From Mobula hypostoma (lineage: Eukaryota): a stretch of 64,000 nt of DNA. A program made the translations under genes and the position numbers. Under the pieces are notes generated by a model. The model saw nothing but the letters and a program-made list of their open reading frames with translations. It was not told where the DNA came from and searched no databases. Numbering within the stretch: the stretch's first letter is position 1; the number at the start of each line of letters is the position of its first letter. This document shows, in pieces, positions 3,426 to 59,182 of this stretch. The stretch lies in contig NC_086097.1 in assembly GCF_963921235.1 (NCBI RefSeq), forward strand, positions 12,028,001 through 12,092,000, read 5' to 3'.

Positions 3426-3982
3426 GTGAGGAGGTGTACATGGGTTCATCGTCCATTCAGAAATCTAATAATGCTGGGGTAAAACTGTTCCTAAAACATT
3501 GACTGTGTGTCTTCAGGCTCCTGTCCCTCCCCCCTAATGGTATCAATGAGAAAAGAGCATCTCCTGGGTGATGGAGGTCCTTAATGATGGATGCCGCCTT
3601 TTTGATGCATTGCCTTTTGAAGATATCCTTGATGCTGGGGAGTTTGTGCCCATAATGGAACTGGCCGAGATGGCAACTTTTCTGCAGTTTTTTTTGATTC
3701 TGTGCAGTAGCACCCCCCCCCCCCGCATACCTGATGGTGATACAACTGGTTAGAACGTTCTCCACAATACACCTGTAGAAATTTGCTAGAGTCCTTCACC
3801 ATCTCTGAAGATGACACCCAGGACCTTGAAACTGCTCACACTTTCCACTAGTCATCCCTTAAAGATGAATGGCGTGCGTTCCCTCAACTTCCCCTTCCTG
3901 AAGTCCAAAATCAATTCCTTTGTCTTACTGACGTTGAGTACAAGATTGCTGTTGTGACACCACTCAACCAGCTGACCTATCA
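3426..3982 (-). mobile_element. Rex1/Babar-type LINE ORF2 C-terminal fragment
   Basis: SCITI.Y...KKLQ...IIKDLHHPGDALFSLIPLG.R.RSLK....FRNSF motif. Confidence 0.75.
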
Positions 3983-3984
3983 GT

Positions 3985-4120
3985 ACAAAAAAGGTACTGC
4001 AGATGCTGGAAATCTAGAGGAAATCCTGCTGAAGGGTCTTGGCCTGAAACATGGACTGTTTATTCCCATTTTTAGAAGCTGGCTGACCTGCTGATCTTCT
4101 CCACACATTGTGTGTATTGC
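3985..4120. mobile_element. Penelope-like terminal repeat fragments with degenerate hammerhead
   Basis: cctgctgaagggtcttggcctgaaacatggactg, preceded by an oppositely oriented end piece. Confidence 0.65.
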
Positions 4121-4994
4121 AGCTGATCTGTCGTCTCATCGTCACCCTAATCAACTGAGGACTTATTCCTTCATTCAATTTTTTTTTCAGTTTTGAAGAT
4201 CTGGCATCTTTAGTTTCTGATAACATTGGCCTTAATAAAGCTTTTGGGACTTTTCACCATTGTCCCCGCCTGCTTTGATTGCTCTGTCACTGTGTAAAAA
4301 CAGAAAAGGGAATCTCAACTGGTCTTCCTACAACTCACTGAGAAGTTCCTTATTACCAGTGTGTATGTGAATCACGCCGCACCAGATAATTAGAAGGTTT
4401 AGCTTCGCTCTGCTTGCTTAAAATGTTATTGCATTCAGTGGGAATTACGCTTGCAGATATGTTGTAAAACTACACAGGCAACATCTGGCGTGTACTCACA
4501 GCCTCTGAGTCAGACAAGTAGCTCAGCCTGAATTGAGCTTGTGTGCAACTTATCCCTAGGATATTTCTGAGATAGAAACAGTGAGGGATTCACAATGCTT
4601 GTTGCAGTACAACACATACCAGAAAAAGAACTGCATAATGCATGCTATCAGAAATTAGGCATCATTATTATGTAGCCATTACCAGACGTGATAATAATTT
4701 TCAAATTAATGGCAAACAATAGGAGCATCTATGGGGCAGCACTCTGACGCTAATAGTGCTGTTACAAATAGTAATTTACTGAAGTTAACTATCTGACCCA
4801 TTGTCTCATTGTATAGATTAAAATGTTGCAGATAAATGGCAATGATTCTTGTTTGTTCTGTTTCCATTCTAAAATATAGAATTCCAGAGGGAAATTTCCA
4901 TTGCTGCTAATACTCTCTGAAGGTTTTATTTTGGGGGAAGACAACTTTCTCCTATGGCTTACACGTTATTCTGGAAAAACCTTCCTTATCAATA

Positions 4995-12204: not shown

Positions 12205-12580
12205 GGGCAGCCTCCTGTACATCAGTGAGACCTGACAAATATTGGGATCATCTTGTTGAGCACTTTTGCTCCATCAAGCAGAATCTCCCAGTGGCCACTA
12301 TTTCAAGTCCATCTCATTCCAATATGTCAGTGCATCGTCTCAACTACTGCCAAGGTGAGACCTCTCTCAGACTGGAGGAGCAACACTTCATATTCTATTT
12401 TGGTAGCCTCCAACTTGATGGCATGAACATCAATTTCTCTAACTTCTGTTAATTTCTCCTCCCTCCCCCTTCTCTTTTCTTCTATTCCCCATTCTGTCTC
12501 CTTGCTAATCTCTTCTCCTTACCTGCCCATCATCTCTCTCTGGTCTTCCTCCTCCTTCCCCTTCTTTGTTGGTCAACTCA
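12205..12580 (+). pseudogene. Penelope-like element GIY-YIG endonuclease C-terminus and pyrimidine-rich 3'UTR
   Basis: LLYISET (YIG motif, from 12212), then ..LVEH...LPVA...SHS.MSV...RLEEQH.IF..GSLQ.DGMNI.FSNF*. Confidence 0.8.
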
Positions 12581-15040: not shown

Positions 15041-15094
15041 TACTGTGAACCGACCTGATACATTTGCTATGTTACTGAGGATATTTGCTTCTGG

Positions 15095-15225
15095 CTTTTT
15101 TCCCATTCCTCTCCACTCCTGACGAGTGTCTTGATCTGAAGCATTGACTGTATATTGCCCTCCATGGATGCTGCCTGACCTGCAGGGTTCCTCCAGCATT
15201 TTGTGCCTGTTGCTCCGGATTTGCG
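15095..15225 (+). mobile_element. Penelope-like terminal repeat, degenerate hammerhead
   Basis: cctgacgag...ctgaagcattgactg...gatgctgcctgacctgc...ctccagcattttgtg. Confidence 0.65.
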
Positions 15226-17199: not shown

Positions 17200-17490
17200 T
17201 CAGCTCCATCTTGGGCACTAACCTCCACAGTGTCCAGGACATCTTCAAAAAGGCAGCATCTACTCATTAAGGACCTTCACCATCCAGGTCATGCCCTCTT
17301 CTCATTGCCACCATCAGGATGGAGGTACAGGAGCCTGAAGGCACACACACTGGAACAGCTTCTTCCCCTTTGCCATCAAATTTCTGACAGGACATTGAAT
17401 TCATGAGCACTACCTCGCCACTTATTTTTGTTTCTGTTTCAGTGCACTATCTTTATAATTTAACTATTTAATGCACATACTTACTTACTA
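17200..17490 (+). mobile_element. Rex1/Babar-type fragment
   Basis: IKDLHHPGHALFSLPPSGWRYRSLKAH. Confidence 0.75.
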
Positions 17491-17494
17491 TGCT

Positions 17495-17625
17495 TTCTAA
17501 CTCTGATTCCTCATTTTTCCTTTCAGTCCTGATGAAGGGTCTCAGACTGAACAGTCAACAGTTTACTCTTTTCCATAGATGCTGTCTGGCCTGTTGAGTT
17601 CCACCCGAATTTTGTGAGGGTTGCT
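17495..17625 (+). mobile_element. Penelope-like terminal repeat
   Basis: cagtcctgatgaagggtctcag; GAAA box damaged. Confidence 0.7.
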
Positions 17626-19154: not shown

Positions 19155-19734
19155 TAAATCATGTTGATGCCATTCAAGCAAGGTCATTGAGCTGAAAGGT
19201 TGACTCAGTTTCTGTTTCCACCGATGTTGCCTAAAATGGTGAGCAAGGCTGGTCAGTACATTTGCTCACTTGCAGTTTATTACCCACCCAAAATGCCTGA
19301 AAGATTTAAAAAAAAGTTGAAAAAGACAACAAAAATATATCCTAATTATGCTTACCTACTGGAGTAAATCACATTCAAACACACTTGTTAATTTGCCAGC
19401 TGGGGGCAGAATAACATTTGAAGTAAAACAAGCAGCAATTTGTTTTTGCCAAAAACAATTTTGTCAGGAAGGGATGCTGAGTTTCAAACTTGAGAAATCC
19501 TTTTTCCTGAGTGTCCATCAGCTTGAGGAGCTTGACTGTCATCAGGCTGCTTTTGGACAGTGTTCCCTCCCCAGCTACAGAAGTGCCACATTGAACATAC
19601 TTGGGTGACATTGGGGCTGTATAGAGTCCCGGAGAGGTACAGCGTGGAAACAGGTCCTGCAGGTCACCATCAACCACTCATTTACACTAGTTCTACACTA
19701 AACCTCTTTTATTCTCCATGCATCTCCATCAACT

Positions 19735-24983: not shown

Positions 24984-25009
24984 TACGTCTTATGATCTTA
25001 TAGTCTTAA

Positions 25010-25282
25010 GTGCTGGGGAAACTCAGTAGGTCATGCAGCATCTATGGAAATGAATAAACAGTTGACTTTTCAAGTGGAGACCTTTGAATAAAGAGTCCTG
25101 ATGAAGTGTCTCAGCCCAAAACATCAAAAGTTTATTCATATCCATAGATCAGGGGTTCCCAACCATTTTTATGCCATAGACCAATAACATTACGCAAGGG
25201 GTCCTTAGACCCCATGTTGGGAACCCATGCCATAGATGCTGTCTGACCTTCTGAGTTTCTCCAGTATTTTGTGTGTGTTGAA
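25010..25282. mobile_element. Inverted pair of Penelope-like terminal repeats
   Basis: Minus copy about 25010-25085 then plus copy from gtcctgatgaag near 25095; MITE inserted in the second copy. Confidence 0.7.
25150..25229. mobile_element. hAT-type MITE
   Basis: Perfect 8-bp TSD CCATAGAT (25142-25149, 25230-25237). Confidence 0.9.
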
Positions 25283-27284: not shown

Positions 27285-27382
27285 GCCTGATAAGGATCTT
27301 GGCCTGAAACGTTGACTGTTTATTAATTTCCATAAATGCTGCCTGACCTGTTGAGTTCCTCCAGAATTTTGTGTGTGTTGCT
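27285..27382 (+). mobile_element. Penelope-like terminal repeat
   Basis: cctgataaggatcttggcctgaaacgttgactg, fused to a Rex-type tail. Confidence 0.7.
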
Positions 27383-27849: not shown

Positions 27850-28796
27850 ACTCACTTTACACTTATGACTGTATGGCTAAGCACGACTTCAATGCTGTAT
27901 TTGAGTTTGCTGACAACACGACTGCCGTAGGCCGATTGAAAGGTGGTGATGAGTCAGCATATAGGAGGGAGGTTCAAAACCTGGCCGAGTGGTACCACAA
28001 CAACAGCCTCTTACTCAATGCCAGCAAGACCAAGAAGCTGATTATTGCCTTCAGGAGAAGGAAACCAGAGGCCCACAAGCCAGTCCTTACTGAAGGATCA
28101 GCGGTGGAAAGGGTCAGCAACTTTAAATAACTCAGTGTTATTATTTCGGAGAAACTTTCCTGGGCCCAGGACGTAAGTGCAATTACAAAGTAAGCAGGAC
28201 AATGCCTTTACTTCCTTAGGAGTTGGTGAAAATTCGGCATGGCATCTAAAACTTTGACAAACTTCTATAGATGTGTAGTGAAGAGTATATTGACTGCCTG
28301 CATCACAGCCTGGTATGGAATCACCAATGCCCTTGAGCAGGAAATCCTACAAAAAGTAGTGGATACGGCCCATTCCATCGCAGGTAAAGCCCTCCCCTGC
28401 ATTGAGCACATTTATATGAAACACTGTCGTAGGAAAGCAGCATCCATCGGCAGGGAACCCCTCCACCAAAGGATATTACTTCACTCAACTTCACTTGCGC
28501 CATCTTTGAACTGTTCCCACAACCTATGGAATCACTTTCAAGGACTCTTCATCTCATGTACTCAATATTTATTGCTTATTTATTTATTATTACCATTTCT
28601 TTCTTTTTGTATTTGCACAGTTTGTTGTCTTTTGCACTCTGATTGAAAGCCCAAGTTGATGTGATTGATTTCATTGATTCTGTTATGATTATTATTCCAT
28701 AGATTTATTGGTTATGCCCATAAGACAATAAGTCCCAAGGTAGTTTATGGTGACATATATGTACTTTGATAATAAATTTGCTTCGAACTTTGAACT
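27850..28796 (+). mobile_element. Rex1/Babar-type LINE: RT end to 3' tail
   Basis: FEFADNTTAVG..DESAYRREV..L..W...N.L.LN.SKTK; LTNFYRCVV.SILT.CITAWYG; (tttgaac)n tail. Confidence 0.85.
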
Positions 28797-35147: not shown

Positions 35148-35509
35148 ACACACACAGCACATGATAATTTATGAAGGTAAAGAAGAAATCTACAGATGAA
35201 TCACATAAATAACAAACTAATGTGCATTAATATTATTGTAAGGTACAGAACAATTCATCCATAGTTCTGATTTAGGGTCGTGGTCTGAAATGTTGTCTGT
35301 TTATTCACTTCCATTGATGCTGCCAGACTTAAAGAGATCTTCCAGAATTCTGTATGTGTTGCTAATGTCTTCATGTTTATTTTTGTTCATTTTGTCATAA
35401 GTTATGTATACTTCATGTTAATTTAGGTTTTGTGTAGCCTGTAATATTTGTAACATATAGTATTGATGGTATAAAAAGCTAATTTCCATGTATGCCCATG
35501 GACTAGAAC

Positions 35510-37925: not shown

Positions 37926-38066
37926 GATAGATCCTTAGTCCAGGTACAATCAGAGGCTATTCTATCATCATCATCATCATTATGTGCCTTGTCGTATGAC
38001 GTCGACAATCATGGTCTCATGACCATTGATTGTTCTTGGCAAATTTTTCTACAGAAGTGGTTTGCA

Positions 38067-38290
38067 AACAACAGGAAATCTGCGGATGCTGGAAATTCAA
38101 GCCACACACATAAAAGTTGCTGGTGGATGCAGCAGGCCAGGCAGCATCTCTAGGAAGAGGTGCAGTCGACGTTTCAGGCCAAGACCCTTCGTCAGGACTG
38201 ACTGAAGGAAGAGTGAGTAAGGGATTTGAAAGTTGGAGGGGGAGGGAGAGATCCAAAATGATAGGAGAAGACAGAAGGGGGAGGAATGGA
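38067..38290 (-). mobile_element. Young Penelope-like terminal repeat
   Basis: Flanked by ttgca/ttgca; near-identical to 40425-40620. Confidence 0.8.
38163..38200 (-). ncRNA. Minimal type I hammerhead ribozyme motif
   Basis: Minus strand CAGUC-CUGACGA-A-GGGU(CUUG)GCCU-GAAA-CG-UC-GACUG: stem I, conserved core, stem II, palindromic ACGU helix III, GUC cleavage triplet. Confidence 0.7.
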
Positions 38291-38924
38291 TTGCATTGCC
38301 TTCTTCTGGGCGGTGTCATTACAAGATGGGTGGCCCCAGCCATTAACAATACTTTTCAGGGATTGTCTACCTGACATCACTGGTCGCATAACCAGGACTT
38401 GTGATCTCCACCAGCTGCTCGCATGGCTTCACGTGATCCAGATCGGAGGGCAAGCAGGTGCTACACCTTGCCCAAGGGTGACCAGCAGGCTAGTGGAGGG
38501 AAGGGGCGCCTTACAACTCCTTCGGTAGAGATATATCCCCACTCTGCCACCTATATTCTATACATGAATAAAGAAACAAATGTGCCTTTAAGAGTTTCTG
38601 ATCCCTTCCCTCTTCAAGTATAGCCCTTCTATGCCAACTCCCTGTCACATTATGAGGTCAGCTTTGTCTCCAATTTGACTATCTTCATATATGCCATGCT
38701 TCTGGGATTTTTCCAGCTTGGTAGTACCTAGAACAGCAGTGTGGACCTTTAGGAGCAAAAACTGATGCTGAACTAGATAAGGAGATATTAATCTAGATCC
38801 TGTCATGATGAAGGGTCTCAGCCCAATATGATTATTTCTTTCCATAGATGCTGCCTGACCTGCTTAAGGTCCTGCAGCATTTTGTGTGTTATTATTGATC
38901 CAGATATCTCTGATAAACAGTATG

Positions 38925-39975: not shown

Positions 39976-40424
39976 TCTCTCTGCTTGCCATGCTATTATA
40001 GTCCTTCTACTTTGTGTTGTAGTCCACCTCTACTATCTTTTCAGTGCACATTAAAGTTTGTTTTATCACTGACATTTTCGAGTTGTAATGGCAGGATATT
40101 GACTTGAAAAATAAAGTCTGTTCCTCTCTCCACAGGTGCTGTCTGACCTGTTGAGTATTTCTTGACCTTACGGTTTTATCTATGATGTGGCCACTAAGCA
40201 GGTGTTACACCCTGCCTAAAGTTGACCTGCAGGCTAGTAAAGGGAAAGAGAACCTTCCACTTCCTTTGGTAGAGAGGTATCTTGTCTGCCACCCAAATCC
40301 ATAGGCATTGATAAACTTTAAACCATTACGTAGATCTGCATACTTCATTGGCACACACAAGGAGATGGTTAAGATTGGAGGAAGAAGGACTGAAAGTCAG
40401 AAATAGAGACAGGTATGTTCATTC

Positions 40425-40772
40425 AACCAACACACATCAAAGTTGCTGGTGAACGCAGCAGGCCAGGCAGCATCTCTAGGAAGAGGTACAGTCGACGTTT
40501 CGGGCCGAGATCCTTTGTCAGGACTAACTGAAGGAAGAGTGAGTAAGGGATTTGAAAGTGGGAGGGGGAGGGGGAGATCCAAAATGATAAGAGAAGACAG
40601 GAGGGGGAGGGATGGAGCCAAGAGCTGGACAGGTGATTGGCAAAAGGGATATGAGAGGATCATGGGACAGGAGGCCCAGGGTGAAGGAAAAGGGGGAGGG
40701 GGGGAAAACCCAGAGGATGGGCAAGGGGTATAGTGAGAGGGACAGAGGGAGAAAAAGGAGAGAGAGAGAAAG
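40425..40772 (-). mobile_element. Penelope-like terminal repeat and 3'UTR
   Basis: Hammerhead motif at 40489-40526 with core CUGACAA (G8 lost). Confidence 0.8.
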
Positions 40773-41344
40773 AATGCTCATTGTCATTGTATGTTCATTG
40801 TCACTTTTGGTGGAAAAGACTAAAGAGGAAGCTACTGTATATCTGGAAACATGAACTTGTGCAGTTAAAAATGGGGAACATAAAGCTAAAAGAAAATCAT
40901 GAATGAGAAAAAGTGAAAATAACAATTTAATTTTAGTCTGTCAATAAAATAAAAATTTTATTGAGGAAGAAATAATTAGTTTAACACTGAGGTACTAATG
41001 TATTGCTTACATACATGTGTGTGAGTAATAATTTCACTTGAATTACTTTGTCTATAAAGTCGGAGAAAGGGATGGGGATGCTCAGTGTGTTGGAAGTTTA
41101 TGGCAAGAATATCTGACAAGCCAGTAATCTTCCAGACAATTGTATGAAGGATCCTAACACATTTCTAGCTGTGAAGAATCTGAAGCTAAGATCCACATCA
41201 TATGACAAATACAAACCTACTGACCCAGTTCATGGAAAGGTCAAGGAGATGATCACCAAAGAGGTTCTCCTCTGCTTTGATTAAGTTGTCTATAAATAAC
41301 CACTACTTTGCATATAGTACTAACAGAATAAATGCTATGAAGAT

Positions 41345-42640: not shown

Positions 42641-44320
42641 ATATTTAAAATATTTCAGGTGGAGATAGATAAATATTTGAAGGGTTATATGGAGCTGGCA
42701 CAGCAAAGAAGTTGAAACAAGTGTAGATCAGCCATGAATTGAAGGAAACACTCAATAGTTTATGTGGCATCTATGGAGAGAAAAGCAGTTAATATTTTAG
42801 GGCAAAGTCCCTTCATTAGAATCCTTTCACTTTCCACAGATGCTTCCTGGATCGCTGGGTCTTTTCAGCACTTTCTCTTTTTATTTCAGGTTTCCAGCAT
42901 CTGCAGGTTTTGATTTCAGTTTCCTTTTCTCTCTGCTGTCCAAGTATAAGAAACAATAAATAACCAGTCCTTGCTGTAATGTTGAATGAGTTTTCTGAGT
43001 TCTTCTGTCTGGCCAGAGCATTGTCCTGGACTGCTATTGCACGCATTTGTCGAAGTCTGTGTATTAACATATTTCATCTGTTTGAACTCTTTCTACATCA
43101 GCTCCATGCAGTATATCAGTAGAGTTCCTGACTTATTTTGAAACACATTTACAAATGTTAATGAAGATGTTTGGTATTTATGGCTGACCCATGCTGTTTT
43201 TTTGTTTTCACTGTGCATTTGGCTTATGTTAGCTGAATTGCCTTGTATGAAAAAAAAGAGCTAATGTAGGCCAATACATTAATAATTGTCTTAATGGACG
43301 GGGTTAGATGGAGCCTGTTTAATGATATAATTTATACATTGATGTTTGCCTTGTGTGCATGAAGCCGACACCAGCCATCAGATCTGAAGTCAAATTACCC
43401 ATGAGTAATAGTGTGTTACAGTAACAAATTACCACAGTCATTTTAAAATCATTTTATCTTGATGGAATTTCAAATCAGTAAATTGTGCACATTTAAAGGT
43501 TGCTGTCGGTACAATTTGCTCTGTCGGTACTCTTTGCTCTCCATACTATTTATTCTGTCAGTATTGTTTTCCATGTCTGTACTATTTTCTATACTATGCC
43601 AGTATTATTTCCAGTGGTGGTGTTAGTTCAGAATGAACTATTGACCAGGGCAGGGGAGAGACCCTTAGCTGGTAAGTGCAGAGGGTGATGGCAGAGATCT
43701 GGGACCTTCTCCTCTGCCTGTGCCCCAAAGGTAGTGGAGAATACAGCTGACACTATATTCACAAGAGCTTCCTACTGGCCAACAGAAGATCCACATACCT
43801 TTGTAATATACAAATAAGGTTCTGTAGTGTATCTCGAGGCCCTCACTGTAAACATAAAGTCATTGTTATAGAGAAGTAGAGCACAGAGACAGGGTCTTCA
43901 GCCCATCTAGTCCTTGTGTATTCAAACGTGATTCAATTTCCTGAGAAGGTGACAAAGTTAATTGATAAAAGTAGGACAGTGGAAGGTTGTTTACATGGGT
44001 GTTAGTAATGACTTCAACAGTTTCCCTCATTTTACCTTGGTCCAGAAGACTTAAGTCACCATAGGATTCATGGTGAGTTGACAAGCTGGATACCAAATTG
44101 GTTTGATCAATGAAGGCAAATGATAGTGGTGAAGATGGTGTACTTCTGATCGGAAGTCTGTGACCTGTGGTGTTCCACAATGATCAGATATGGGACTTCC
44201 ATTTGTAATATACATGAATAAGTTGGAGGAAAATACAGGTGGTCTGATTATTAAGTTTGCAGATGATGAAAGAATGATGGCATTTTGGATAGTGAAGAAG
44301 ATTGTCAAAGGTTACAGCAA

Positions 44321-48524: not shown

Positions 48525-49180
48525 TCACACACAAACAGCTGGAGGAACTCAGCAGGTTCAGGCAGCATCTATGGAGGGGAATAAGCAGTCGATGTTTATC
48601 ACATCAGGATTGGAAAGGAAGGGGGCAAAAGAACGTTAGTTCCGACTCAGTGGGAGAAGCAGTATCTCATATTCCATCTGGGTAGCCTTCATCAGGACTG
48701 ATAACATGAACATTGATTTCCCTAACTTACAGTAATTTCTCCAATCTCACCCCCTTCTCTCTTTTTACATTCCTCATTCTGGTTACCCTCTAACCCCTTC
48801 TCTTCTCCTCACCTGTCCACTACTTCCCTTTGGTTCCCTTCTTCCCTTTATTCCATTGTCCATTGGCCTCTCCTATTAGACTCCTTTTTCTTGAGCCCTC
48901 TAACTCTTCCACCTATCACTTCCCAGCTTCTTATCCCCCCCTCCGCCCACCTTCCCTCTCACCTATCTGTACATATCACCTGCCAGCTTGTACTCCTTCC
49001 TCTATCCCACCTTCTTATTCTTGCTTTTGCCCACTTCATTTCCAGTCCTGATGAAGGAATTCAAAAAAATCAAGCAACATCTATAGAGGAGAATAAACAG
49101 TTGACACTTAGACAGAGTTCTTCCAGCATTTTGAGTGTGTTGCTCAAGATTTCCAGTGTCTGCAGAATCTCTTGTATCTG
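48525..49180. mobile_element. Penelope-like element: inverted end, GIY-YIG C-terminus, 3'UTR and terminal repeat
   Basis: 48650-48735 EKQYLIFHLGSL...MNIDFPN; pyrimidine tract; cagtcctgatgaagg at 49043. Confidence 0.75.
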
Positions 49181-49183
49181 TGC

Positions 49184-49263
49184 CAGTGGTTTCCAACCTG
49201 GGGTCGACAGACCCCTTAGCATAACGGTATTGATCCATGGCGTAAAAAAGGTTGGGACTCCTG
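49184..49263. mobile_element. hAT-type MITE
   Basis: TIRs; flanks atctgtgc/gtctatgc. Confidence 0.8.
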
Positions 49264-50425: not shown

Positions 50426-50985
50426 CATATGTCACCACATTCAACTCTGAGATTCATTTTCCTGCAGGTAAACTCAGCAAATCTATAGAATAGTAACTAG
50501 TCCTGATGAAGGATCTTGGCCCAAAATGTCGACTGTTTACTCTTTTCCATAGATTTCGCCTGGCCTGCTGAGTTCCCCCAGCATTTTGTGTGTGTTGCTT
50601 GGATTTCCAGCATCTGCAGATTTTCTCGTCTTTGAATAGCAATTATAACAGGATCAATGAAACATCAACCAGCGTGCAGAAGACATCAAACTGTGCAAGT
50701 GCAAATATAAATAAATAGCAATAAATGATGAGAACATGAGATAATGAAGAACTCCTTAAAGTGAGATCATTGGTTGTGGGAACACCTCAAAGGATGGGCA
50801 AGTGAGTGTAGTTATCCCCTTTTGTTCAGGAGCCCGATGTATTAGGCGTAGTAACTGTTCTTGAACCTGGTGGTGCAAGTCCTGAGGCTCTTGTACCTTC
50901 TACCTGATGGCAGCAGGGAGAAGAGATCATGACCTGGGTGGTGGGGATCCCTGATGATGGATGCTGCTTTCCTATGACAGCGACT
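50425..50985 (-). mobile_element. Rex-type 3' element split by a PLE unit
   Basis: IIRDPHHPGH.LFSLLPSGRRYKSL on the minus strand. Confidence 0.7.
50500..50633 (+). mobile_element. 134-bp hammerhead-bearing PLE-derived unit
   Basis: TSD gaatagtaacta/gaatagcaatta (50488-50499, 50634-50645); starts gtcctgatga. Confidence 0.75.
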
Positions 50986-51636: not shown

Positions 51637-51679
51637 GTGTTTCAAAGTGACAGAAAGTTGCAAAGTAGTTATGAGTTTA

Positions 51680-52022
51680 ATAACCTTATCTCCTTACTTG
51701 CCCATCACCATCCTCTGGTGTTCCTCTCCTTTTTCTTTCTTCCTTGGTCTCCAGTCCTCTCCTATCAGATCCCTCCTTCTCCAGCCCTTTATCTCTTTTT
51801 CCAATCAACTTCCCAGTTCTATACTTCACCCCTCCCCGTCTCCTGGTTTCACCTATCGCCTACCACCTCGTACTTCTTCCTTCCCTTGCCCTCACTTTCC
51901 TACTCTGACTTCCCTTCTTTTCCAGTTCTGAAGAAGGGTCTTGGACTGAAGTGTCAACTGTTTACTCATTTCCATAGATGCTGCCTGGCCTGCTGAGTTC
52001 CTCCAGCATTTTGTGTGGGCTG
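51680..52022 (+). mobile_element. Penelope-like 3'UTR and terminal repeat
   Basis: cagttctgaagaagggtcttggactgaagtgtcaactg (degenerate hammerhead). Confidence 0.75.
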
Positions 52023-52849
52023 CTATGAGTTAAATAATTCAGTTTTTTTGAAAAAGGCTCCTTTAGCAGTGAGACTCTTGCTCTGTCCTGTACTGAAGAA
52101 GCAGTACAGATCACTATGCTAAGATTTTTCCATAAACCAGAGCATTAAGGCAGGAAAACCTAGACATCCATGCTGACTGTCAAACAGCGATTTCCACTAA
52201 TGCTATACTTACCCCATTTTATGCTTTCCAATTCCCTTCAACTTCCATCAGACACACCCACATATAAGGGCAATTTGCACTGATCAATTAACCAATCATT
52301 CCTACGACTTTAGAAAAAGGCTGTACGATATAGGAGCAGAATTAGGCCATTTGGCCCATCGAGTCTGCTCTGCCATTTCATCATGGTTGATCCATTTCTT
52401 TGTCAGCCTCAGTCTCCTGCCTTCTCCCCATATCCCTTCATGCCCAAACCAATCAAGAATCTATCACACTCTGACGAAGGATGTAAGATGAAAGAAGAGG
52501 AAGGCTACTTGAGCTGGGAGACTGTCCACTATATTGGATAGAAATTTAAACACTTTTGAGCTGCAGTTAAGAGTGCAACCAACAATTGTACCTGTAAATT
52601 CATAAAACCCAATCGAGTGATCTATCCAAAAATAACTCTGGAAACAATGCTTCCTTATGATAATGCTGTAGATCAAAATAAAATAATGGTCACCTTTTCA
52701 GAAGTTAAAAATATAAAAACCTTGAGGGAGTCTTGCTCACAAGCGGGCCGAAACTCCTGACGACAGGTGGCAGATCAACTGATGATCCCACTGGCGATAG
52801 CACAGGACAGTTAACATCTTAGTCCACTTGTATTTTCAACTCAATTCAT

Positions 52850-53457: not shown

Positions 53458-53972
53458 GTTCTTTATTGGCTGTAAAAAAAACTTGGTATGTCCTGAGGGT
53501 ATTAGTGTAGGTCAGTTTTTCTGTCACATCATTATAAACTGCTGTGTATGGCAGTCCACTAAAGTCCATAGAGGGTTACAGGATTGTCAGATGTCAGCCC
53601 ACATGAAGCGGATTAGACAATGGCTTTGCATACGGCAATTTAAATGTTTCATAAAATCTACATTCCATATTGTATTTGTCAGCATTTCTGTGGCCCTATA
53701 CTGATACTACTGCTTTGGGTAAGTGAAACAGTCTTTTGGGAGTTGGGATTCCTGAGGATTATGCTTGAATTTGCAAAGTCTTCTCCACACCGACAAAAGT
53801 CTGGAGTAGATTATCAGAATGTAAACTCGTTAATATAGAACTGGTCACATTCACAAATGGATCCGACCCACTAGAGGCTGGCGTCCTCCAGACCTATGCA
53901 ACCCTGGCAAAAGGAAGTCACATTCCCTATTCATGAGGCTATCTTCAAGCATTACTTAGAATGCAGGTTCTA

Positions 53973-54527
53973 AAACAGCACACAAAACGTTGGAGGAGCT
54001 CAACAGGCCAGGCAATATCTATGGAAAAGAGGAAGCAGACGACATTTCAGGATGAGACCCTTCATCAGGACAGGACAGGAAGGCGAGAAGTCGGAGTAAG
54101 AAGGTAGGAGGAGGTGAGGAAGAAGTACAAGGTGAAACCGGGAGAGGGGGAAGGGGGTGAAGTAAAGAGCTGGGAGGTTGATTGGTGAAAGAGATATACG
54201 GGCTGGAGAAGGGGAAATCTTATAAGAGAGGACAAAAGACCAGTGAAGAAAGGGAAAGGGGAGGAATATCAGAGGGAGGTAAAGGGCAGATAAGGAGATA
54301 AACCCCCTTCTCCCAGTTTCACCAATCACCTGCCTCCTTGTACTTCTTGCTTCACTCCCCCCACCTTCTTACTCTGACCTCTCCCCTTTTCTTCCAGTCC
54401 TGATGAAGGGTCTCAGACCGAAACGTTGACTGTTTACTCTTTTCCATAGCTGCTGCCTGGCCTGCTGAGTTCCTCCAGCATTTTATGTCTATTACTTTGA
54501 TTTCTAACATCTGTAGAATCTCTTGCG
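53973..54527. mobile_element. Inverted pair of Penelope-like ends
   Basis: Minus copy about 53973-54300, plus copy about 54300-54527. Confidence 0.8.
54395..54432 (+). ncRNA. Minimal type I hammerhead ribozyme motif
   Basis: CAGUC-CUGAUGA-AG-GGUC(UCA)GACC-GAAA-CG-UU-GACUG. Confidence 0.65.
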
Positions 54528-54887
54528 ATCGAAGTTCCAAAGCAGATAACTGGGAAGGATTTTCTACTTGAACCAGGGCTTTGTCTTTAAGTGTTATAAT
54601 TGAATCAGGAATTTTATGTAACACAGGAAGTGGTTTGGCTCTGTTCTGAGATCAAGTGTATCTAGATTTGGCTGTTCTCCAGTGCAGATGTCGACAGGAG
54701 GGAAATATCTGCTGGATTTACTGGATGTTGATACATGTCAAGCTATTCTCGGGGGAGGCGCTGCATTAATTTTATTGATTTACAAACTTTGACAGGCCAT
54801 GCAGCCAAGTCATTTTCACATCAACAGATTTGCAAGTAAGCAACGTATGTTATAAAAAAGTAAGTGGCAATTTCAGCTCAAGTACAA

Positions 54888-55300
54888 GGTGGCACAGAGG
54901 TGCAGCATTTAGTGTAACACCATCATAATGCCAGTAACACTGGTTCAATTCCTGCCGCTGTCCATAAAGGGTCTGCACGTTCTCCCTGTGCCCGCATGGG
55001 TTTCCTTCAGGTTCTCCGGTTTCTTCCCACATTCCAAAGATGTATGGGTTAGTAGGTTACAGACGCAAGAGGTACTGGATGCTGGAAATCTGGAGCAATA
55101 CACATAATGTGCTAGAGGTCCTCAGCAGCCGAGGCAGCATCTACGGATGAGAATAAACAGTTGGTTTTTCCAGCCAAGACCCTTCATCAGGAGTTTGGGT
55201 TAGAAGGTTAATCGGTCAAATGGGTGTAATTGCGCAGCCCAGGCTGGTCAGCCCAGAGGGACCTGTTACCGTGCTGTATCTCCAAATAAATAAATAAATA
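54888..55300 (+). mobile_element. V-SINE split by a PLE unit
   Basis: ggtggcacag...ggttcaattcc...V-domain; resumes after 55195. Confidence 0.8.
55060..55195 (-). mobile_element. 136-bp hammerhead-bearing PLE-derived unit
   Basis: 15-bp TSD tgggttagtaggtta/tgggttagaaggtta (55045-55059, 55196-55210). Confidence 0.75.
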
Positions 55301-58857: not shown

Positions 58858-59085
58858 GACATGCATTGAAGGTGAGATGAGTAGGTTCATAGGGGATGTG
58901 AGGAGTAGGTTTTTTACTCAGAGAGAACAATGGATGCTGAGAATGCGCTGCCTGGGATGGTGGAAAATACATTACAGACTTTTAAGTGATGTTTAGATAG
59001 GCACATGAATATGAGGAAGATGAGGAACAACCATTCACTAAAAAGCCACATTTCTATCGTGGCTTGGCACAACACTGTGGGACAA

Positions 59086-59182
59086 AGCAACACACACAAA
59101 ATACTGGTGGAACGCAGCAGGCCAGACAGCATCCATAGGAAGAAGCACAGTCGACGTTTTAGGCCGAGACCCTTCATCAGGC
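59086..59182 (-). mobile_element. Penelope-like terminal repeat
   Basis: Hammerhead motif 59148-59182 with GAAA mutated to AAAA. Confidence 0.75.

Follow-up and report, generated by a model that had tools for sequence, protein, structure and literature searches.

Short hammerhead-bearing insertions with a clustered 5′ end in Mobula hypostoma: probable tips of a Penelope-like element

Short insertions that begin at a hammerhead ribozyme recur in the window studied here, a stretch of 64,000 nucleotides from Mobula hypostoma. They raise the question whether they form a small mobile element of their own or are the ends of a larger one. A preliminary description of the sequence had proposed a minimal retrozyme-like unit of about 135 bp, based on two insertions (copies A and B) that are much alike in length and ends. 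The window is repeat-rich DNA with decayed LINE fragments; RVT_1 was found in two of six ORFs scanned, in one above the Pfam cut-off.

Two insertions and their parent element

The coordinates of copy A (134 bp, plus strand) and its 12-bp TSD with two mismatches were confirmed (Table 1). Positions in the unit are numbered from the G at 50500 (+1). Random placements reached the score of this TSD in 0.2% of 5000 trials when the ends were tight and in 4% of 1500 when they were loose. For copy B, the 15-bp TSD with one mismatch was retained, none of 5000 random placements being as good, but the span of 55060–55195 (136 bp) had to be corrected. The duplication lengthens to 18 bp with two mismatches, which moves the start to +2 (the T of TCCTGATG) and gives a better length of 133 bp. 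Because the host repeats of both copies are older than the insertions, an empty-site check was possible. The motif duplicated around copy A is single in the paralog at 28764–28590 (minus), the one of three aligned paralogs in which it is recognisable, the other two being too diverged at this place. The motif duplicated around copy B is single and recognisable in all six aligned host-repeat paralogs.

Copy A carries a hammerhead of the minimal, helix-III-less kind defined for the pseudo-LTRs (pLTRs) of Penelope-like elements (PLEs) (PMC4209133). As described before, the boundary of the unit lies about 30 nt upstream of the predicted cleavage site, the cut being between +31 and +32, and the unit is not simply a cleavage product. 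The ribozyme cores of both copies are broken (AAAA for GAAA in A, loss of the stem III box in B). At the Rfam gathering score, the 64 kb gave no match, hammerheads included. The five stem I pairs are kept in 5 of 13 copies, and the copy at 38198 has a complete minimal hammerhead, with an intact core, a palindromic ACGT junction and both of its stems (I and II). Unusual fold stability, such as a retrozyme circle should have, was not found in six copies or fragments (z-scores −0.12 to 0.70), although the copies are decayed. Copies A and B are old, mutated and probably devoid of function. Two members of a younger subfamily, 38066–38290 and 40427–40777 (minus), are 90–94% identical to each other and have CUGACGA in place of CUGAUGA. 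They thus lack the ATG that starts the ORF of PAc, the Poseidon element of Anolis carolinensis. In one subfamily, an ATG after a second pyrimidine tract and AG (about +54; 50553–50633 in the window) opens a frame through the tail, and this frame is shifted in the younger subfamily.

The unit was placed in a larger element by its relatives in the window. A profile HMM built from 16 copies matched 27 pieces of the window, against none when the window was reversed. DNA homologous to the endonuclease (EN) fragment at 12246–12449 precedes the UTR and hammerhead at 48645–49045, placing EN upstream of the pLTR on the same strand. This fragment matches 21 proteins (E ≤ 0.001), and GIY-YIG was found in two of nine scanned relatives, below the Pfam gathering score. 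Another protein homology search with the fragment returned eight candidates, none at E ≤ 0.001. One relative, P0009 (59% identical to the EN fragment), contains the CX2-5CxxC linker that lies between RT and EN and marks Neptune/Nematis elements (PMC8557442). It also has RT-like motifs by eye, with no Pfam match. The window itself holds neither the linker region nor the RT portion of the element. The order EN, 3′ UTR, hammerhead and tail on one strand, together with the EN relatives and the minimal hammerhead, identifies the unit as the 3′ tip (pLTR end) of a PLE, probably of the Neptune type. With a probability of about 90%, we regard the units as pLTR tips of an EN+ Neptune-type PLE that were inserted by its own RT-endonuclease and arose repeatedly from several subfamilies.

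Metagenome contigs yielded 14 distant EN/RT-relative loci (24–42% identity), none of which is matched by the unit HMM, and two of the 14 hold an unrelated hammerhead-like motif. In a distant PLE of metagenome contigs (L011:3045 and L012:2626), an identical type I hammerhead-like motif lies 3′ of the ORF match and has no upstream pyrimidine tract. No EN/RT-relative loci were found in viral contigs, and a pattern scan detected no further copies of the unit in metagenome or viral contigs. Pieces of the PLE endonuclease also occur in the predicted host proteins P0003 (ATP synthase c), P0010 (7TM receptor) and P0014 (RecQ5). They are probably gene-prediction artefacts, or possibly exonisation.

Table 1. 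Coordinates of the insertions, their parts and related copies within the window
Feature	Positions	Strand	Remarks
Copy A	50500–50633	+	spans unit +1 to +134; short PLE tip with a minimal hammerhead, then ~65 nt and the optional tail
Minimal type I hammerhead, copy A	50498–50535	+	presumably inactive
Stem I 5′ strand, copy A	50498–50502
CUGAUGA, copy A	50503–50509
Stem II, copy A	50510–50522
GAAA box, copy A	50523–50526		mutated to AAAA
Predicted cut, copy A	50530/50531
Stem I 3′ strand, copy A	50531–50535
Optional ~34-nt tail, copy A	50600–50633	+	second 3′ end class
Left TSD, copy A	50488–50499	+	last 1–2 letters possibly the element's own
Right TSD, copy A	50634–50645	+
Uninterrupted paralog of copy A's host repeat	28590–28765	-	empty-site control
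Copy B	55060–55192	-	short PLE tip with tail; begins at +2; stem III box mutated
Upstream TSD, copy B	55193–55210	-	18 bp, 2 mismatches; 15 bp of the preliminary description, 55196–55210
Downstream TSD, copy B	55042–55059	-
Long copy fixing the anatomy	48645–49175	+	EN C-terminus, ~350-nt pyrimidine-rich 3′ UTR, hammerhead at 49045, ~65 nt, tail
Inverted arm ahead of this long copy (head-to-head pair 48525–49175)	48525–48633
Decayed GIY-YIG endonuclease C-terminus of the parent PLE	12246–12452	+	followed by the same 3′ UTR
Short copy bounded by TSD	3969–4132	+	tail (~3984–4022) inverted ahead of the +2 to +100 body (4024–4120)
Short copy 38799–38892	within 38786–38905	+	13-bp TSD, 2 mismatches; start −3 to +1, end ~+95
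Short copy	59084–59182	-	no TSD; microhomology to host repeat at both ends
Short copy	27286–27382	+	joined to host repeat via shared CCTGAT; 5′ end between +3 and +9
Head-to-head pair	25008–25280	.	minus arm from ~+10, plus arm from −1
Short copy	35264–35363	+	TSD sought, not found
Inverted pair, more distant family	42734–42920	.	minus arm starts at stem I, plus arm ~+44
Long copy 51684–52023	within 51670–52037	+	14-bp TSD, 1 mismatch; closest relative of copy A in the window (85%)
Head-to-head long pair	53970–54525	.	54071 minus, 54397 plus

Ends of the short copies

The clustering of 5′ ends noted in the preliminary description is real in the window: nine of the 16 ends located between −50 and +50 fall within 10 nt (scan p 0.00026 under a uniform null). 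Nine of 19 hammerhead-anchored arms lack upstream element sequence and have their 5′ ends at −3 to +6, around stem I. Their upstream homology scores are 0–8, compared to a null 95th percentile of 18. The copies named earlier at 4024, 25095, 27286, 35263, 38803 and 59182 start near the core without upstream element sequence, as does a further one at 42819 (minus). That copies begin within a few bases of the core holds for these nine arms, whereas ten of the 19 run upstream, three by 23–33 nt and seven by about 70 nt or more. No unit end within −50 to +50 (0 of 16) falls at the cleavage site (+32). The end positions were assigned by hand, with the flank of the 42819 arm taken from the TSD scan. 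The count leaves out seven long arms, the inverted tail, two fragments that begin at +68 and +77, and three pieces that are continuations or lie internally.

Public contigs were aligned to the long copy at 54285–54560: 84,150 from a DNA run (X1, possibly from the source of the window itself), 68,865 from a second organism (X9), and 9,286 and 4,710 from two more runs presumed to be RNA. Among the 15 joints listed of 198, ends at −1, +1 or +2 were observed in 24 of 25 X1 contigs (14, 4 and 6, respectively), and no listed reference mismatch at this place would clip long copies. Long copies of another subfamily clip at −5 (54392; 423 contigs in X9), and none of the matches listed shows a reference mismatch that would account for the alignment starts at 54396–54398. 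The contig data are compatible with the stem I boundary, weakly so and with a seed bias. Depth at stem I steps up about 12-fold, from 82k to 1014k (X1) and from 30k to 401k (X9). This step was rejected as evidence, since depth swings about tenfold inside the unit and falls equally where the reference merely diverged. Opposite strands are joined in seven of the 15 listed joints, five of them with ends at 54391–54398 to 54433–54443, and joints that go back from 54484/54488 to 54396–54398 were seen in 16 X1 contigs. With few of the letters between the joined sides known, these joints sample 5′ starts and prove neither dimers nor fold-backs. Among the contigs on 54285–54560, no position qualified as a start or end shared by many molecules. 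Run X15 shows a loose end at 54398 (56 contigs; agreement 0.36), for which splicing was rejected as a reading, X15 being only presumed RNA.

Could the peak arise from ordinary, smooth 5′ truncation, through small numbers, microhomology joining and a few upstream bases missed in old copies? Under four exponential nulls the scan p was 0.0005–0.017, and the value of just 0.017 under the steepest one leaves room for this, as do the hand-assigned positions. Two of the nine junctions (27284 and 59183) are set by microhomology with the host. Upstream extensions shorter than about 10 nt would go undetected at the null percentile given above, and the contig depth profile is uninformative. Against this, the six short copies whose junctions are fixed by a TSD or host sequence still give 7 of 13 ends in 10 nt (p 0.004), extensions of 23–33 nt were detectable, and the contig starts at 54396–54398 differ from the place where long copies clip and are not mismatch-explained among the matches listed. 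Smooth truncation is thus unlikely.

The TSD directly adjoins +1 in copy A and +2 in copy B, which leaves no shared exon or leader upstream. A shared short first exon was rejected for this reason, and copying of a spliced RNA is unlikely. The three arms that end 23–33 nt upstream of the unit (15086–15116, 17490–17526 and 48610–48633) do so near the place expected for a branch point. A lariat branch-point stop was considered for them and dropped, as 17526 runs past the branch-like motif.

At the 3′ side, two classes of ends, at about +100 and about +130–134, are common to short and long copies. A length of about 135 bp applies to two of the nine short copies, or three if the copy at 4023 with its tail inverted ahead of the body is included, but the other six end at about +90 to +100. 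The tail that separates the classes occurs at similar frequency in short (3 of 9) and long arms (4 of 10). An optional tail of 30–40 nt has been described for PLEs (PMC11167929; PMC8557442), in Anolis PAc it lies between two internal RT start sites (PMC11167929), and a tail inverted ahead of the body is a known PLE pattern (PMC8557442). The 3′ ends of the units are known biology and match the optional tail. Among 18 units scanned for TSDs, four scored at least 7, three scored 6, five were weak and six had none; the TSDs are 12–18 bp in short and long copies alike. The parentage, the TSDs, the two classes of 3′ ends and the clustered 5′ end are all demonstrated in this analysis.

Several copies were rearranged. 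The plus arm of the pair at 25008–25280 is interrupted by a small inverted-repeat element (25150–25225), which splits copy 25095 and is accompanied by a duplication of 8 bp. An element of similar kind stands behind the tail of the copy at 49045 (about 49178–49250). We take the element at 25150–25225 to be hAT-MITE-like. The long copy at 49045 also contains an internal inversion from about +7 to +63 (49060–49117). Two very old fragments of related hammerhead units, at 19183–19243 and 40091–40161, have blurred boundaries.

Ancestry of short and long copies

A separate minimal retrozyme-like unit was not borne out. A single clade of the seven short rows was rejected (p-AU 0.005), and the 3′ ends and the style of the TSDs are shared with long copies. 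In a tree of 15 rows, of low resolution with 9 of 12 inner branches open, short copies are interspersed among long ones: the short label needs five changes, compared with a mean of 5.3 on shuffling, and 281 of 500 shuffles need no more. Copy A is 71% identical to copy B, compared to 85% and 82% to the long copies 51925 and 54397. Diagnostic positions, read by eye, assign the short forms to three subfamilies and a more distant family. To judge from these sequences, the unit is not one discrete family.

We also considered a non-autonomous element, a minimal retrozyme or SINE-like, with masters of its own and mobilised in trans by the PLE. The likeness of A and B in length and at both ends would fit such an element. 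Copies B and 4023 group together (support 88/80), the A+B clade alone is not rejected (p-AU 0.058), and one subfamily tends to be richer in short copies (6 of 10 versus 2 of 8; p 0.19). The backward joints in 16 X1 contigs could be head-to-tail dimers, but they may equally be independent neighbours. No tandem array of the unit is present among nine TRF rows in the 64-kb window, the ends lie away from the cleavage site, and the greater identity of A to long copies and the rejected clade speak against separate masters. Taken together, an element of this kind is unlikely.

Metazoan non-LTR retrozymes resemble the units in being small and non-coding, with a type I hammerhead and kinship to PLE pLTRs, and dispersed monomers have been reported (PMC7761336; bioRxiv 10.64898/2026.07.22.740005). 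They are described there as tandem repeats of about 150–300 bp that are processed by the ribozyme to circular RNAs. In contrast, the units in this window are single, bounded 31 nt upstream of the cut, polyphyletic and mostly broken in their cores. Identity with retrozymes is not supported: the window shows no tandem units and no cleavage-site junctions, and the tree gives the short copies no ancestry of their own. What remains is a real but modest regularity: PLE truncation products with a focused 5′ end, not a new retrozyme.

5′-truncated or solo pLTR copies of EN+ PLEs (Neptune/Nematis) share with the window copies the C-terminal GIY-YIG, the 3′ UTR, the pLTR hammerhead, the optional 30–40-nt tail, the inverted 5′ tail or arm, and variable TSDs or microhomology junctions (PMC8557442, PMC3846280). 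Solo pLTRs, TSDs, microhomology junctions and inverted arms of PLEs are thus already published (PMC3846280). Truncation as treated in these two papers is frequent and not focused, whereas about half of the hammerhead arms here start within about 10 nt at stem I. In the literature searched, which left most subscription papers and Repbase outside, no report of a 5′-end hotspot at stem I or of a strong-stop model for PLEs was found.

Possible origin of the 5′ boundary

The preliminary description had offered, as its other option, a strong RT stop or processing point at the folded ribozyme. In outline, the data support a fixed stop, or an end of the RNA, at the ribozyme's 5′ edge; whether this is due to a run-off or to an RT stop is a choice that we infer. 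Tentatively, we favour the short copies as by-products of internally primed reverse transcription running off the RNA 5′ end at stem I. Transcription would begin at the initiator-like CCAGTCC/TCAGTCC in the 5′ pLTR, so that the template RNA would start at stem I. RT would prime 100–134 nt downstream of the RNA start and run off the 5′ end, and the short cDNA would be integrated. Priming so near the RNA 5′ end would give a short cDNA of fixed length, and long copies would arise when priming takes place at the downstream pLTR. The units span the cleavage site, which suggests that the template was uncut, as in PAc. The ribozyme would be a passenger in the formation of short copies, most of them dead on arrival.

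The letters CCAGTCC/TCAGTCC at the unit start presumably fit the 7-nt initiator consensus. The same letters are also constrained by stem I, which weakens the case for a run-off. The number of copies is small (nine short arms, six of them junction-fixed), and contigs cannot show RNA ends. In support of internal priming, PLE reverse transcription was found to initiate at two internal sites, by which the tail is defined, with RNA not cleaved by the hammerhead as the template (PMC11167929). In PAc these two starts lie about 110–150 nt 3′ of the hammerhead and produce two genomic 3′ ends (PMC11167929), and two 3′ ends are likewise found here. The ORF of PAc starts at an ATG in the hammerhead core (PMC11167929), whereas in the window copies that frame stays open for no more than about 65 nt and one subfamily carries CUGACGA. 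The 5′ ends of PAc are not analysed in the text consulted (PMC11167929). An initiator-type promoter inside the pLTR is known for Penelope of Drosophila virilis (PMC2377424).

The same Penelope also provides a precedent against a run-off. Its transcription begins farther upstream, by 46 nt and an intron of 75 nt, and this intron has its 3′ end at the 5′ end of helix I (PMC2377424, PMC4209133). The likeness to the present element consists in the promoter inside the pLTR and an acceptor-type site at the helix I 5′ end; in D. virilis about 120 nt separate the start from helix I, which lies downstream, and the intron has been proven (PMC2377424, PMC4209133), whereas here start and intron are putative. 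By analogy, this precedent favours a splice-acceptor reading over a run-off. In such a case the RNA would continue upstream and RT would stop at a splice-acceptor-like boundary. One possible cause is a roadblock formed by splicing factors that are bound to an unspliced 5′-UTR intron at its pyrimidine tract and AG; another is a release of the cDNA through self-folding once stem I is copied, followed by a weak dA-rU hybrid on the U-rich tract. A pyrimidine tract and YAG stand directly before +2 in six of the ten upstream-extending arms (by eye), though the entire 3′ UTR is pyrimidine-rich and the tract is unspecific. Copies B and 4023 begin at +2, the predicted exon start, and the Penelope intron ends at helix I (PMC4209133), but a donor site or spliced joint was not identified and 10 of 19 arms pass the boundary. 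The opposite-strand joints 54391–54398 to 54433–54443 and the pair at 42734–42920 fit a stem I fold-back; however, the partner coordinates of the joints coincide with differences between subfamily and reference, and a fold-back requires all of stem I, which copy B lacks. We regard an RT stop of this kind as a possible reading, somewhat less likely than the run-off. As a separate observation, a 14-nt patch at 48688–48701, within EN-coding sequence of a long copy, is reverse-complementary to stem I and core (−3 to +11), and it looks like a brief template switch that may have involved the stem I boundary.

In a bolder version of the run-off, PLEs would undergo a strand transfer like that of retroviruses, and the short copies would be "strong-stop" products left where this transfer failed. 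A start at stem I together with a downstream hammerhead cut at +31 would leave a 32-nt terminal redundancy on the RNA. RT would prime at +100 or +134, run off the 5′ end and jump to the redundant 3′ end, yielding long copies and the pLTR, and a failed jump would leave a 100–135-bp unit to be integrated. In PAc, cleavage was unneeded in vitro, and in the data of that study no RNA-seq reads end at the cut (PMC11167929). We consider this model improbable. If true, it would assign a specific function to the PLE hammerhead and provide seed units for non-LTR retrozymes.

The replication of PLEs is known from one in vitro system, and the in vivo role of their hammerheads has been called a mystery (PMC7761336). 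A 5′ boundary that is fixed across copies is a fossil record of one replication step, either the start of the RNA or a halt in its copying, and it makes an open question on PLE replication and the ribozyme directly testable. A 2026 preprint proposes that retrozymes derive from truncated PLE ends, without stating a mechanism (bioRxiv 10.64898/2026.07.22.740005). The short copies suggest, in concrete terms, how retrozymes could have come from such ends.
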